Source of the DNA: Enterobacteria phage RB33
Sequence record: KM607001
Strand: one strand, 5' to 3'
Length of the DNA: 64,000 nt
Part shown: positions 7,069 to 62,597 of the stretch, piece after piece
Position numbering within the stretch: the stretch's first letter is position 1
Layout: every line of letters starts with the position of its first letter
Notes under the pieces: model-generated
What the model saw: the letters and a program-made list of their open reading frames with translations, nothing else
Told to the model about the DNA's origin: nothing
Database searches by the model: none
Program-made: the position numbers and the translations under genes

Positions 7069-7688
7069 TTATCTCATTTCAATAAAATCTACGAGTTCGG
7101 CATAGGATTTACGGAACATTACTTGATGCCCACCAATGATAACTTGGTCATCTGGTACTTCGTATACAGCAAGATAAAATCCTTTCGAAGATAATTCTTC
7201 CCGCTCTTCTCGCGTGAACCATCTCATCATATCATACTCACTAGCGAAAGCAAAATGATAAAGAGCTATAAACCATCCTGGAATATGATATTCTACTCCA
7301 ACATAATCTTTCTTGAACTTAGTATTAATTACTATATTAGCGTTTTTAACTAATAGTTTATCTTCGTGTGGTAAAGGAATTCTTTTATTATTATCGCTAT
7401 GATGCGATATTCTACTCCAACATAATCTTTCTTGAACTTAGTATTAATTACTATATTAGCGTTTTTAACTAATAGTTTATCTTCGTGTGGTAAAGGAATT
7501 CTTTTATTATTATCGCTATGATGCATAAAATTAGGTCTGTCATAACCTACGTGTAATAGCCACTCTTCACTCCATGAATCTATTATACTCCTGTACGGCG
7601 TTATTTGAACACAAAGATTTCGACGTATTGTTATAGCATCTTCATAATCAAGAATACTAAACGATGATTCAACACGATAAATTTTCAT
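7069..7688 (-). pseudogene. motB.2-position gene disrupted by a 119-bp tandem duplication (frameshift, premature TAG at 7350)
   Basis: ORF from ATG 7688 reads through copy 7406-7524 in frame, then out of frame in copy 7287-7405; removing one copy restores a 166-codon ORF ending at TAA 7069-7071. Confidence 0.6.
7287..7524. repeat. perfect tandem duplication, 2 x 119 bp
   Basis: 7287-7405 and 7406-7524 are identical base for base. Confidence 0.9.
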
Positions 7689-8677: not shown

Positions 8678-8930
8678 TAATAACCGCCTTATAAAGATGG
8701 CTAATTTCACCTAAAATGTAATCACTGATTGTAACAGTTTTTACTTCACCACAAAAGAATTCTAACGCAATCAAATCTCGTTCAATTTCTTCCAATTGAA
8801 GCATTAACTTGCCTGATTCAGTTTTCACATTTTTGCGATTTTTGCTATAAGCTATTTCATAAATTTCGCTTACTTTATCTTGAAGAAGATAAAACTGATC
8901 TTTAGTTATTTCCACGAATAGCTTCCTCAA
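8670..8930 (-). CDS. hypothetical protein
   Basis: 86-aa ORF in track. Confidence 0.5.
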   Translation of the reverse strand: MRKLFVEITKDQFYLLQDKVSEIYEIAYSKNRKNVKTESGKLMLQLEEIERDLIALEFFCGEVKTVTISDYILGEISHLYKAVIND

Positions 8931-8936
8931 ATTTAA

Positions 8937-10256
8937 TCATACATAAAACACATCATAACGACCACGGGTAACACCAACATAAAGAAGCTGCTGTGCTAGT
9001 TCAGCATCTGCATAATGAATACAAGGTGTATAAATGAAAGCACGATCTACAGACATGCCCTGAGCTTTATGGAATGTTGACGCAGGAAGTGCTTTCACTT
9101 TACTGAACTGTGATTTAGCATCCCAAAAATCACTCCACGGAGCTTTTCCGCCTTTGTTCCAATTTTTATAAGTTTCTGCCGTTTTACCTAAAAATAAATT
9201 AAACTTATATAGCTCTTCATCAGATGAAATTATTTTAATCTTTTCACGATAATATTCATCATCGCCGTAAGTTTCTACTGTTAAATCCCAATGACGAATT
9301 AAGTATTCTCCAGAAACACCACGAGCTTTAACAAAGGTTGATGTATACTCTGCTTCTATAATACGAACTAATTGTCCGTTATTAAAAATAATTTCTGACA
9401 CAGGCTTTCCATCAATTTTATATGTTTTAATTAATGGTTCCTGCATTACAATAATTTCACCGACAATAAAATCTTTATCAGTTTCAAAAATCTTTTTACG
9501 AATAATGCTATTTAACTTGTCAACAGATTTATTCGTAAATGCCATTACGCGATTTTCAAACAAATCATCTAGTGATTTGACGATTGAAAAATAATTTACC
9601 ATAAAATCGCGTAAAGCGGTATCACCAGTAAATCCACGTACTCCATGCCCGTCAACAACTTTATCATAAATCCACTTACCATTACGAACATCAGTAGCTA
9701 CATCAATAATAGGAGCATTACTGCGTTTAACTTCAGTAAGTTCACACTGATAAAAATCTTTGTGTGTAAAGAATGGACTGATATAAGCAGTGTTTTCTCC
9801 TGGGTCAACAGGTCTGATTTGCTTATTATCACCTATTCCAATTATGGTACACCATGGCGGGATAGTTGAAAGCAGAATTTTAAATAGCTTTCTATCATAC
9901 ATTGACACTTCGTCGCAGATTAATACCCTGCATTTAGCTAAATCTGGTACTTCCTTCTGTTCAAAAAGAACATTTTCTTCATATGTTACCGGGTTAATTT
10001 TAAGAATGCTGTGAATAGTACTCGCTTCTTTCCCCGACAGTTTTGAAAGAATCTTTTTAGCTGCATGTGTAGGAGCTGCCAAAATGATACCAGTTTCGCC
10101 TGTTGATATTAAAGCTTCAATGATGAACTTAGTAAGAGTAGTCTTACCAGTACCAGCAGGTCCATTAATAGTTACATGATGTTTCTTTTCTTTAATAGCC
10201 CTCATAACGATGTTAAAGGCATTTTTCTGGCCTTCTGTCAAATCATCAAATGTCAT
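8937..10256 (-). CDS. dda: Dda DNA helicase (SF1B), 439 aa
   Basis: Walker A GPAGTGKT; 439 aa as T4 Dda. Confidence 0.9.
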   Translation of the reverse strand: MTFDDLTEGQKNAFNIVMRAIKEKKHHVTINGPAGTGKTTLTKFIIEALISTGETGIILAAPTHAAKKILSKLSGKEASTIHSILKINPVTYEENVLFEQKEVPDLAKCRVLICDEVSMYDRKLFKILLSTIPPWCTIIGIGDNKQIRPVDPGENTAYISPFFTHKDFYQCELTEVKRSNAPIIDVATDVRNGKWIYDKVVDGHGVRGFTGDTALRDFMVNYFSIVKSLDDLFENRVMAFTNKSVDKLNSIIRKKIFETDKDFIVGEIIVMQEPLIKTYKIDGKPVSEIIFNNGQLVRIIEAEYTSTFVKARGVSGEYLIRHWDLTVETYGDDEYYREKIKIISSDEELYKFNLFLGKTAETYKNWNKGGKAPWSDFWDAKSQFSKVKALPASTFHKAQGMSVDRAFIYTPCIHYADAELAQQLLYVGVTRGRYDVFYV

Positions 10257-10565: not shown

Positions 10566-11312
10566 TTATCCTCGGATAAGTTTAAAAATTGAACAATCTA
10601 GCGGGTATCCTCTTTTTAATTTGAGTTTATCAATAAATGACAAGTTTTGAAACCGCTCTACACCTTGAATAATTTTATCACACATATCATATTGCATTTC
10701 TGCTTCTGACAACTTTTTCACAATTTTCCAATCCGAGCCTTTAAGAAGAACGTTCAGTTTAACAACTTCAGCGCCTTCTGCTATGCGAGAACCATCAATA
10801 CGAGCTTTAAGTGCTATAATCGTTAGCTTAACGTCAGAAGTTTGTTTTGATTTAGAAAGCTGAGAAATGTGTTCAATTCGGTTTTCACGTTTTTTCTGTA
10901 TAGCTTTAATTTGATTATAAGTCTTTTTGATTTTAGCCCATTTCTTTTCATCTAAATTTAGTTTATGAACTTTTTTCGCAGATGAACGACCAATTCGCAA
11001 AGCAAACAAATCACGTTTTTCAATTAACTCCTCTAAAGTATAATCAGAACGAAATGTATTATACTTTTTCTTTACTGCAATAACATTCCCTTTAATGTAT
11101 CCAACGTTATTATCAAAACGTTCTAATGATAATTTCTCTCCTTCAATACGATTATCAAAAGGTTCTCCCGAGTAAGCACAAACTTTTTGGTCTAAAATGT
11201 TCTTAATGTAATTGAAGTCTAAGTTAAAATCTTTAGAACGTCTTTTTGCAGATGCCTGAGTATGCTCTAAACGACGTTTAATTTTACGAATTTGATTATT
11301 AGACAGCTTCAT
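10566..11312 (-). CDS. srd: Srd-like protein, 248 aa
   Basis: size and position between dda and modA as in T4; name not verified. Confidence 0.5.
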   Translation of the reverse strand: MKLSNNQIRKIKRRLEHTQASAKRRSKDFNLDFNYIKNILDQKVCAYSGEPFDNRIEGEKLSLERFDNNVGYIKGNVIAVKKKYNTFRSDYTLEELIEKRDLFALRIGRSSAKKVHKLNLDEKKWAKIKKTYNQIKAIQKKRENRIEHISQLSKSKQTSDVKLTIIALKARIDGSRIAEGAEVVKLNVLLKGSDWKIVKKLSEAEMQYDMCDKIIQGVERFQNLSFIDKLKLKRGYPLDCSIFKLIRG

Positions 11313-13542: not shown

Positions 13543-13746
13543 TCACGATTTATCCCCATAGATGTCTCTCATCAATTTAAGCGCTGAGCGTTCTAGTTTC
13601 TTTTCTTTCTCAGCACTAATCATTGATTTCATCCATTCTTCTGATTCGTTCTGCATTTCTTTATTTGCTTGTTCAACCCAACCATCGTCAATGTACATTG
13701 AGTTTGGTCTATTGAACCATTCAAACATTTTCTTCAGAACTTTCAT
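13543..13746 (-). CDS. hypothetical protein, 67 aa
   Basis: ORF in track; its start lies inside the proximal copy of the 91-bp duplication. Confidence 0.55.
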
Positions 13747-13868
13747 TTGTTTTACCTAAAACAACAGTAGGAGCATCGTCAATGTACATTGAGTTTGGTC
13801 TATTGAACCATTCAAACATTTTCTTCAGAACTTTCATTTGTTTTACCTAAAACAACAGTAGGAGCATC
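13683..13868. repeat. perfect tandem duplication, 2 x 91 bp with 4-bp CATC junction microhomology
   Basis: positions p and p+91 identical for p = 13683..13777. Confidence 0.9.
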
Positions 13869-17101: not shown

Positions 17102-17266
17102 TTACTCTTCTTTTTCTTTAGATTCCTCTTTTTTCTTTTTAGGAATCTGTTCAGGACCTTTATTTACTACAGCGCCTGATGTTGTTCCAGTAGAGATATT
17201 TTCAGGACTACCACCTGAATCTCCAGCGACCATATCTTCTTTGATAAATTCTTTATATGTTTTCAT
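17102..17266 (-). CDS. 54-aa mini-protein with internal-protein-like capsid-targeting N-terminus
   Basis: coordinate-checked translation MKTYKEFIKEDMVAGDSGGSPENISTGTTSGAVVNKGPEQIPKKKKEESKEKEE; below the track cutoff. Confidence 0.5.
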   Translation of the reverse strand: MKTYKEFIKEDMVAGDSGGSPENISTGTTSGAVVNKGPEQIPKKKKEESKEKEE

Positions 17267-17670
17267 ATTAACCTCTATTCATAAAAGCATTAAAAATTTG
17301 GTCATCAATAGATGGCGCAGTAATATTTTCTGCATCATTTAGCAAATCATTAATTTCATCAGATAGCATAACACATGTACCTTTATTTCCTGTAATTGTT
17401 ACTGCGCAATTACGAACGTTTTCTTTATTAAATTTTAGGTTAATATTTTCGTAATGAAAATCCTTTAATGCTGAATATATTTTTAAAATAAAATTGTCTT
17501 TTACTACAATAAACCCAACCTCACTATTAAAACGTGGTTCATGGAAACTGTAATAAACCTTTTCATCTATAAAATCGTATGAAATTTTTTCCATTTTTAA
17601 ATATGAAAATTCAGAACTATACATATTAACCTTTATTCATAAAAGCATTAAAAATTTGGTCATCAATAGA
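17264..17670. repeat. 49-bp direct repeat (48/49 identical) at the 3' ends of two paralogous genes
   Basis: catattaacctCtattcataaaagcattaaaaatttggtcatcaataga at 17264-17312 and 17622-17670. Confidence 0.8.
17268..17624 (-). CDS. hypothetical protein (61.1 position), 118 aa
   Basis: ORF in track; C-terminus DDQIFNAFMNRG shared with the next ORF. Confidence 0.6.
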   Translation of the reverse strand: MYSSEFSYLKMEKISYDFIDEKVYYSFHEPRFNSEVGFIVVKDNFILKIYSALKDFHYENINLKFNKENVRNCAVTITGNKGTCVMLSDEINDLLNDAENITAPSIDDQIFNAFMNRG

Positions 17671-30376: not shown

Positions 30377-30766
30377 TTAACGATTAAAATCAGCCGCAAT
30401 TGTTTCGGCAACAATTTGAGCAGCAACAATCAGACGTTCATCTGCATTGCCGCAATAATCATCTTCAAGGCGTTCATGACCATGTGCCATAAGAACCTTA
30501 GCACCGGCGTTTAGGGATTCTGTAGTATGTTTGCGCATTAGTTCAATCCATTTATTACTTACTTCACGATCGATAGCTTCATAATACGCATGACGAGCAG
30601 GTGCAGATTTAATTTTGTTCTGAATAACTTCCATTGCGTTATCAGAAAGAGACAAAACCCATGCGCGACGAATTTTATTTTGGTTTTGTGGATTTGATTC
30701 AGAACGCACGTGTTTTGGCTGAATATCTTTTACATCAACAGTATAATTCACAGTAATTTTAGTCAT
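30377..30766 (-). CDS. rpbA: RpbA-like protein, 129 aa
   Basis: size and position downstream of 45; contains [10 protein letters not shown] motif shared with the internal-protein gene. Confidence 0.5.
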
Positions 30767-31018: not shown

Positions 31019-31735
31019 ATGAATTATAAACTAATTTATGAAAAGTTAATCTCTAATGCTAAATCTCGAAAACTTGATTGCTATACTGAATCTCATCACA
31101 TTATACCACGCTGTTTAAATGGCAGCGATGATGCTTCAAACTTAGTAGATTTAACACCAGAAGAGCACTATGTAGCTCATCAACTTTTAGTAAAAATTTA
31201 TCCTTCTGAACCAAAATTAGTCTATGCTGCTAACATGATGACAGTTTCTACGAAATACGCTAAACGCAACAATAAAACTTTCGGTTGGATTCGTCGTAAA
31301 CTCTGGGAATTAGAAAAGAATAAAGAATTCTCCCAGGAGACACGAAAGAAAATGTCTGATGCAGTAGCTAATAAAGCAAGACTAACTTGTCCTCATTGCG
31401 GTAAGTCTGGATTAAGCGGGAATATGAATCGTTGGCATTTTGATAACTGCCCAAATCACCCTAATCCTAAAGTTAGACCACCAATGTCTAAAGAACACAG
31501 AAATAATATCTCAAACGGGCTTAAAGCAATCGTTCTTGAAGAAACATCCTGCGAATTCTGCGGAATGATAGGCAAGAAATGCGTTATCGCAGCGCATAGA
31601 AATTTCTGCAAGAAAAATCCAAATGGACGCAAGAAAACTGAAAAGACTGGTACTTGCGTCCATTGCGGTAAAGTTACCACTTTCGGAAATTTATCAAGGT
31701 GGCATAATGATAACTGTAAATATAAACCTAGCTAA
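31019..31735 (+). CDS. free-standing HNH homing endonuclease with C-terminal zinc-finger repeats, 238 aa
   Basis: HNH core ESHHIIPRCLNGSDDASNLVDLTPEEHYVAH; CPHCGK...WHFDNC and CVHCGK...WHNDNC; AAGGA before ATG. Confidence 0.8.
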   Translation: MNYKLIYEKLISNAKSRKLDCYTESHHIIPRCLNGSDDASNLVDLTPEEHYVAHQLLVKIYPSEPKLVYAANMMTVSTKYAKRNNKTFGWIRRKLWELEKNKEFSQETRKKMSDAVANKARLTCPHCGKSGLSGNMNRWHFDNCPNHPNPKVRPPMSKEHRNNISNGLKAIVLEETSCEFCGMIGKKCVIAAHRNFCKKNPNGRKKTEKTGTCVHCGKVTTFGNLSRWHNDNCKYKPS

Positions 31736-62123: not shown

Positions 62124-62597
62124 TTATTTGAATGATTTAACGTACTGAATAGAACCTTTACTATTCACGAAAGCGATTTTACCATTTTTATTATACATTG
62201 TAGCAGTACGTTGATAGCCATAAGTTTGTTTACCAGATTGATAACCAACTAATGCGAAATTATCTTCACCCATTTTATTCTGTTTAGCGCGAATACGTTC
62301 ATGACCATGTGCCATAAGAACCTTAGCATCACCGGTTGCAATGGATCGACGAGTTTTTTCATCTTCAACTGTATTAACAAAGTCGTCAAATGAATCAAAT
62401 TTAGCATGAGATTTATTATACAGTTTTCCATCTACTGCATAATTATATCCCTGTACATCCATCTCAACTTCTGTACCATCATCCAGTACAGCAGTGATTT
62501 TCTGTCCTTTTTTAAATTTCAAAAGATCAGTAAAAGATTCAGCAATAATTTGAGAATTAATAGCTGCTTCAGTAATAAATTCTTGATATGTTTTCAT
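62124..62597 (-). CDS. internal protein (IPII/IPIII family) with capsid-targeting N-terminus, 157 aa
   Basis: N-terminus MKTYQEFITEAA matches the internal-protein CTS as remembered; position before e. Confidence 0.6.
   Translation of the reverse strand: MKTYQEFITEAAINSQIIAESFTDLLKFKKGQKITAVLDDGTEVEMDVQGYNYAVDGKLYNKSHAKFDSFDDFVNTVEDEKTRRSIATGDAKVLMAHGHERIRAKQNKMGEDNFALVGYQSGKQTYGYQRTATMYNKNGKIAFVNSKGSIQYVKSFK

Follow-up and report, generated by a model that had tools for sequence, protein, structure and literature searches.

Probable copying of a short ip4 segment into the unrelated gene rpbA in the phage RB32/RB33 lineage

A 33-nt segment of rpbA in Enterobacteria phage RB33 is identical to part of ip4, an unrelated gene for an internal virion protein. 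The identity very likely results from a micro gene conversion, a single one-way replacement of a patch of rpbA by sequence templated ectopically by ip4, in an ancestor of RB32 and RB33, probably by a template switch. In this ancestor, 21 to 33 nt of ip4 would have been copied into the non-homologous rpbA gene, 31.8 kb away, overwriting the ancestral T4-type sequence and leaving both length and reading frame unchanged. Under this explanation the repeat has no function of its own as a DNA element. The sequence analysed is a 64,000-nt stretch of the RB33 record (KM607001), called the window below. The features concerned, in window coordinates, are:

30377..30766, minus strand: rpbA, putative recipient gene, 129 aa (Pfam PF10789, E = 1e-43; annotated rpbA in RB32)
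30471..30503, minus strand: repeat copy 1 and maximal putative converted tract (rpbA gene nt 264-296, third base of codon 88 to codon 99)
30471..30476, minus strand: 3' microhomology TGAACG (coding strand), common to T4-type rpbA and ip4
30477..30497, minus strand: minimal replaced tract (rpbA gene nt 270-290; FI-TSCG to VL-AHGH)
30498..30503, minus strand: 5' microhomology TGCTAA (coding strand), common to T4-type rpbA and ip4
62124..62597, minus strand: ip4, putative donor gene, 157 aa (PF24183, E = 5.7e-96; phrog_3155, E = 6e-102)
62296..62328, minus strand: repeat copy 2 and putative donor sequence (ip4 gene nt 270-302; motif GD.[KR].LMA[HYFM]GH.RI)

The repeat and the two genes that carry it

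The window contains two exact copies of CGTTCATGACCATGTGCCATAAGAACCTTAGCA, at 30471-30503 and at 62296-62328; both are on the same strand and therefore in direct orientation. No third copy is present in the window even when up to three mismatches are tolerated, and 100 dinucleotide-preserving shuffles gave no match to the 33-mer. Given a base composition of 35% G+C, chance would produce about 6e-9 exact pairs of at least 33 nt per whole genome. Among exact repeats of at least 24 nt within the window, no other has widely separated copies. In a scan of RB32 positions 1-164,500, no exact repeat between two unrelated coding sequences exceeded it in length; the remaining long-range exact repeats of at least 20 nt are repeated intergenic sequences (which look like promoter or terminator elements), belong to the paralogous genes alt and alt.-2, or consist of one 22-mer.

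Both copies lie in genes on the minus strand and are read in the same frame, so that the same 11-residue peptide is encoded; the preceding residue is G in one protein and D in the other. Outside the 33 nt, identity between the rpbA and ip4 flanks drops straight to background. A sequence-only reading of this DNA had described such a perfect repeat, coding for one motif in two proteins with otherwise unrelated flanks, and had proposed a self-comparison for additional copies. The repeat is real and its context is as described. It had further suggested that the repeat could support recombination between the two loci. Such an exchange is formally possible but unimportant, since a deletion between the direct repeats would span 31.8 kb and take with it essential genes (genes 55 and 49, both marked essential in the RB32 record, lie in the interval), and a repeat of 33 bp offers recombination very little sequence to act on.

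The two genes, which had been labelled 'rpbA-position' and 'internal-protein', are correctly named as rpbA (PF10789) and ip4 (PF24183/DUF7412, phrog_3155). The rpbA product scores 148 bits against the Pfam RpbA profile (cut-off 25) over profile positions 1-107 of 108, and is a full-length, significant member of the family of the T4 15-kDa RNA polymerase-binding protein. Gene order around it (44-45-rpbA-45.2-(HNH)-46) is that of the conserved RpbA position. The structure of the T4 orthologue, 95% identical to RB33 RpbA, has been solved (PDB 8k58 chain G). The title of this entry, 'TIEA-TEC complex', indicates RpbA bound to a transcription elongation complex. In PMC10531801 the code 8K58 is given for the NMR structure of SPO1 Gp49, which is probably a typographical error.

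Between 45.2 and gene 46 lies an HNH (mobB-like) homing-endonuclease gene (window 31019-31735, plus strand) on the opposite strand to its neighbours. It overlaps the end of gene 46 and is located about 250 bp upstream of rpbA. It is found in 59 of 503 Tequatrovirus records but not in T4. We considered whether this gene is tied to the altered rpbA patch and found no specific association: of the 57 other carriers, those that were cross-checked have the T4-type patch. That error-prone repair after a double-strand break might have triggered the event is pure speculation.

Ip4 matches DUF7412 (PF24183) over positions 1-157 of 158, and phrog_3155 is annotated as an internal virion protein. The gene adjoins the lysozyme gene e and is named Ip4 in the RB32 annotation and ipIV in T2. 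Its N-terminus, MKTYQEFITEA, is a leader of the T-even capsid-targeting type which is conserved across the family, and the leader region also matches other internal-protein PHROGs. Among Ip4 homologues down to 61% identity, residues G89, D90, L94, M95, A96, G98, H99, R101 and I102 are invariant; the residues shared with RpbA thus fall in the most conserved block of the protein. An AlphaFold model (pLDDT 73) is composed of an N-terminal helix, a beta-rich body and three short helices, and a Foldseek search of the PDB with this model returned no significant match (best E = 0.47). Ip4 is a widespread internal protein and, by analogy with T4 Ip1-3, which are injected and inhibit restriction enzymes of the GmrSD type (PMC12373910), may also be an injected anti-defence protein.

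Comparison with T4 and other Tequatrovirus genomes

RB33 RpbA and T4 RpbA (8k58_G) are identical at 123 of 129 residues, and all six differences fall inside the repeat. The patch peptide in T4 is AKFIMTSCGER, with residues 91-97 reading FIMTSCG compared with VLMAHGH in RB32 and RB33. At the DNA level there are 15 differences from T4 rpbA, 11 of them within the 21 nt of gene nt 270-290 and the other four spread across the remaining 369 nt. The gene is 390 nt long in both types, with no change in length or frame. Since exact identity between rpbA and ip4 extends over gene nt 264-296 (33 nt), the converted tract would measure between 21 and 33 nt. The two hexamers at its ends, TGCTAA and TGAACG, are already present in T4-type rpbA as well as in ip4. 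With the patch left aside, RB32 rpbA shares about 99% identity with ordinary Tequatrovirus alleles; its best match outside RB32 reaches 96.7% over 390 nt, a distance that corresponds approximately to the 11 positions of the patch and two more.

The distribution of the two patch types was determined with a 73-mer that includes the rpbA flanks. With the Ip4-type patch, full-length matches among 50,697 phage records, a collection that does not include KM607001, were confined to two entries for RB32, DQ904452 and the RefSeq copy of it; with the T4-type patch, it was found at full length in 474 of 502 rpbA-bearing records. A tblastn search with a 40-residue peptide, which is blind to synonymous SNPs, gave two records at 100% identity and 497 at 80-90% (those listed are at 85% and of the T4 type). 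A single record fell in the 90-95% band, but with coverage below 80%, and is not a full-length rpbA allele. No full-length intermediate allele was therefore detected by this search among about 500 genomes, which is consistent with an origin in one replication or repair event. In more distant RpbA homologues (35-80% identity; Klebsiella, Enterobacter, RB69-like and Acinetobacter phages) the corresponding region is composed of GAK, a variable stretch of 6-8 residues and (G)ERLED, and none of them includes VLMAHGH. About 185 further phage records have the 33-mer (28 nt or more of it exact) in ip4 and nowhere else. The chimeric junction was not found in IMG/VR, in JGI metagenome contigs or in the gene-position index.

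The motif is thus conserved across the Ip4 family, but among RpbAs is restricted to RB32 and RB33 and is not common to both families. Being conserved in Ip4 and absent from other RpbAs, it is native to the former and foreign to the latter, which identifies ip4 as the donor and rpbA as the recipient, in the RB32/RB33 lineage only. These comparisons support a non-reciprocal copy of 21-33 nt from ip4 to rpbA in that lineage. The suggestion of a recent gene conversion in the sequence-only reading is supported by the presence of the T4-type patch in about 500 rpbA genes and of the Ip4-type patch in RB32 and RB33 alone. At least 185 genomes possess both the ip4 donor and a T4-type rpbA but show no conversion; the event is therefore rare and most simply regarded as neutral. 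It is known from one lineage, RB32 and RB33 being sibling isolates from the same 1964 collection, so that the two do not amount to independent occurrences.

Two explanations would remove the need for any transfer, namely that the repeat is a sequencing or assembly artefact of the RB32 record and that it is an ancient functional module shared by the two proteins. In favour of an artefact, the chimeric allele at the nucleotide level is confined in the phage collection to DQ904452 and its RefSeq copy, and the exact chimeric protein has no entry in the gene-position index. However, the identical protein is also encoded by RB33 (AIT74691.1), whose genome (KM607001, 166,007 bp) was obtained independently by Illumina sequencing at 3,355x and de novo assembly and is 99.93% similar to that of RB32 (PMC4293622). 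Moreover, the window follows RB32 (DQ904452, Tequatrovirus) from position 1 but differs from it by a 119-nt insertion and one SNP. It is therefore a different assembly, and the patch is present in both. Nor does misassembly produce an in-frame replacement of about 21 nt that keeps the length and lies within unique sequence. We rejected the artefact on the basis of the RB33 protein identity and the independent assembly, and regard its probability as close to negligible; resequencing, which had been proposed as a check on the repeat, has not made it disappear. A shared module, for example a metal- or RNA polymerase-binding AHGHER element, would require that RpbA and Ip4 carry a homologous motif kept identical by selection. 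Several weak signals point this way: RB32 RpbA matches Pfam DUF7412 with E = 0.022 over residues 58-103; BLASTP aligns RB32 RpbA with RB32 Ip4 (19/43 identities, E = 1e-6); the best segment in the family-to-family hhalign comparison, although insignificant, sits at the patch; and a loose pattern, G..K-hydrophobic...G.ER[LI], is present in both families. But the DUF7412 signal and the RB32 alignment stem from the patch itself. BLASTP of T4 RpbA against Ip4 finds no similarity, and hhalign of the RpbA family with RB32 excluded against the Ip4 family gives a probability of 0.3% (E = 0.18); a shared domain was rejected on these two results. The motif is missing from about 500 Tequatrovirus RpbAs and from the distant homologues, and selection at the protein level would not hold 11 of 11 third-codon positions identical beside unrelated flanks. 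The 'constrained shared module' which the sequence-only reading offered beside gene conversion therefore falls, and is very improbable.

Overall, RB33 is 117 bp longer than RB32, and the window is 119 nt longer than RB32 over the same stretch. The 119-nt insertion is the second copy of an exact tandem duplication (window 7287-7405 and 7406-7524) inside motB.2, and this second copy is missing from the RB32 record and explains why coordinates in the two differ by +119. The inserted length is not divisible by 3, and motB.2 in the window is broken up into two ORFs, one of 125 aa and one of 53 aa. The sole SNP in 63,881 aligned bases, at window position 10024 (record position 9905), is G in the window and T in the record, and lies inside the dda CDS (record 8818-10137).

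Mechanism, alternative origins and possible effect on RpbA

The ancestral T4-type 33-mer is identical to the ip4 site at 22 of 33 positions. Of about 329,000 positions scanned over the two strands of RB32 none scores higher, and a site at RB32 record position 1757 ties with it (also 22/33). When the query is extended by 6 nt on each side, the ip4 site becomes the single best non-self match for the 45-mer (27/45). A pre-existing imperfect direct repeat of this kind, with 6 identical nt at each edge of the tract, is the hallmark of templated mutagenesis in which the growing strand changes its template. Such a switch from one imperfect direct repeat to the other during replication is accordingly named here as the most likely mechanism, and templated mutagenesis via imperfect repeats has reportedly been observed in T4, in work attributed to Schultz and Drake. 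In such a process a nascent DNA end in rpbA would quit its template and re-anneal at ip4 through one of the 6-nt microhomologies (TGCTAA or TGAACG, depending on the direction of synthesis) and the partial matches in the interior. About 21 nt would then be copied from ip4, before a return switch through the second 6-nt microhomology. Within the pool of replicating genomes, the donor could be situated on the recipient's own molecule or on a different one, and could be either the phage's own ip4 or that of a co-infecting phage. A conversion of the strand-invasion type is less likely because there is so little homology; a heteroduplex-based conversion is an alternative that sequence alone cannot separate from polymerase template switching. 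Donors of T4 templated mutations are mostly nearby repeats; this counts against the mechanism here, where the donor would be 31.8 kb away in an unrelated gene, or on another molecule.

Members of the RpbA family vary most over the replaced residues 91-97, and both conserved anchors beside the patch, GAK and ERLED, are kept. In T4, rpbA is non-essential. Given a patch in the most variable segment of a non-essential gene, the change was probably tolerated rather than selected for. In an AlphaFold model of RpbA (pLDDT 63, a low confidence), two long helices are joined by a hairpin that contains the patch. In the Ip4 model these 11 residues are predicted to lie in a helix (91-102); confidence is modest in both models. 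Host RNA polymerase binding is known for the T4 form of RpbA only (PMC8076793, citing Herendeen 1990; PDB 8k58).

Two further possibilities accept the transfer but place it, or its fate, differently. The chimeric rpbA allele might have been imported by ordinary homologous recombination during a mixed infection with an unsampled lineage. T-even genomes are mosaics; the mobile HNH gene described above indicates that the neighbourhood of rpbA is exchanged; and, as the 33-mer is identical in the ip4 of many phages, the donor need not have been that of RB32. Importation, however, merely shifts the same templated event to another genome, no other carrier is seen in the 50,697 phage records, IMG/VR or the JGI metagenome contigs, and the near-identity of RB32 rpbA to ordinary alleles beyond the patch also speaks against it, so that we consider it unlikely. 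Similarly unlikely is an adaptive transplant, in which the Ip4 segment would have created or modified an interaction of RpbA, for example with RNA polymerase or with a defence protein of the host, and been fixed by selection. This is compatible with the preferred explanation, a single templated replacement, in that both agree on origin and differ only on why the change persisted. The copied segment is the block under strongest conservation in Ip4, internal-protein motifs can be functional surfaces (as shown by the inhibition of GmrSD by T4 Ip1-3; PMC12373910), RpbA binds the transcription elongation complex, and both RB32 and RB33 have the chimeric allele. On the other hand, the allele is limited to one lineage in spite of at least 185 genomes with both donor and T4-type recipient, it alters the least conserved part of a dispensable protein, and the patch residues are modelled, at modest confidence in both cases, in a different conformation in each protein.

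Known systems, significance and other repeats

The closest known parallel is with the templated (complex) mutations that arise in T4 between imperfect repeats, direct or inverted (Schultz & Drake 2008, Genetics 178:661, cited in PMC8604942; Ripley-type template switching). These also consist of clustered substitutions in a short tract of constant length, copied exactly from another site in the genome with the donor unchanged, with a prior imperfect repeat and with short identities bounding the tract; the virus family is also the same. They are, however, laboratory mutants, whereas the rpbA patch is a natural, fixed variant and, unlike them, has rewritten six amino acids with the protein remaining intact.

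Ectopic interlocus gene conversion resembles the present case in being a non-reciprocal transfer within one genome after which a tract is perfectly identical at both loci. Classical conversion depends on long homologous stretches in related genes, but RpbA and Ip4 are unrelated, the tract is 21-33 nt and the anchors are of 6 nt; rpbA and ip4 are thus neither homologous genes nor provided with the extended flanking similarity of paralogue conversion. Template-switch multinucleotide mutations in the Saccharomyces lineage (PMC8604942) are similar in that short templated patches in coding sequence were found by comparison of lineages. Those cases involve nearby inverted repeats (hairpin arms) instead of the distant direct repeats of a phage. 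In the modular shuffling of T-even ip genes (Repoila et al. 1994, as cited in PMC12373910), an ip gene of the hyperplastic loci is likewise involved, and ip cassettes are flanked by short repeats (the RB32 annotation notes 43-bp repeats around Ip7/Ip9). As far as it is described there, such shuffling swaps whole genes through a conserved leader or promoter, whereas in the present case 33 nt from within an ip gene would have entered a gene that is not part of the ip loci.

The rpbA patch is therefore a new, well-resolved instance of a mutational event that is already known, and no new biological system. Its value is that of a clean natural record: as the ancestral allele survives in hundreds of close relatives, the sequence reveals donor and recipient, the direction of transfer, the limits and anchors of the tract, and the lineage concerned. 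It illustrates how one event can rewrite six residues of a phage protein from an unrelated gene 32 kb away, which is relevant to models of phage protein evolution. In phylogenetic or selection analyses such a patch would be mistaken for a large number of separate substitutions or for evidence of homology. In the same way, the weak similarity between RB32 RpbA and DUF7412 should be annotated as a graft and not as a family relationship. A broader proposal is that long-range patch copying between unrelated genes is a recurrent, uncatalogued source of protein novelty in T-even phages, and that here the most conserved helix of Ip4 has changed RpbA function. We think this unlikely; were it true, many lineage-specific patches would be expected across the roughly 500 Tequatrovirus genomes. 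Interest in the event is modest unless such grafts are common or the rpbA graft is functional.

Several other repeats were encountered. The 22-mer mentioned above is an exact in-frame repeat shared by srd (window 10712-10733) and frd.1 (RB32 142480-142501). Both copies encode DWKIVKK between unrelated flanks, and about 0.01 such pairs are expected by chance. It was considered as a second lineage-specific event and rejected: both copies are identical in T4, and it is therefore old. It may represent an ancient patch transfer or a shared short motif. A 91-nt exact tandem duplication (window 13683-13773 and 13774-13864) is located at the srh/mrh junction. RB32 has the same duplication, and its record annotates an extra ORF here as a 'possible partial duplication of srh'. 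Finally, a 49-nt near-exact (98%) repeat (window 17264-17312 and 17622-17670, 358 nt apart) occurs at the starts of two adjacent 61.2-like genes (RB32ORF033c, 'similar to gp61.2'); its presence at both starts indicates a local gene duplication.
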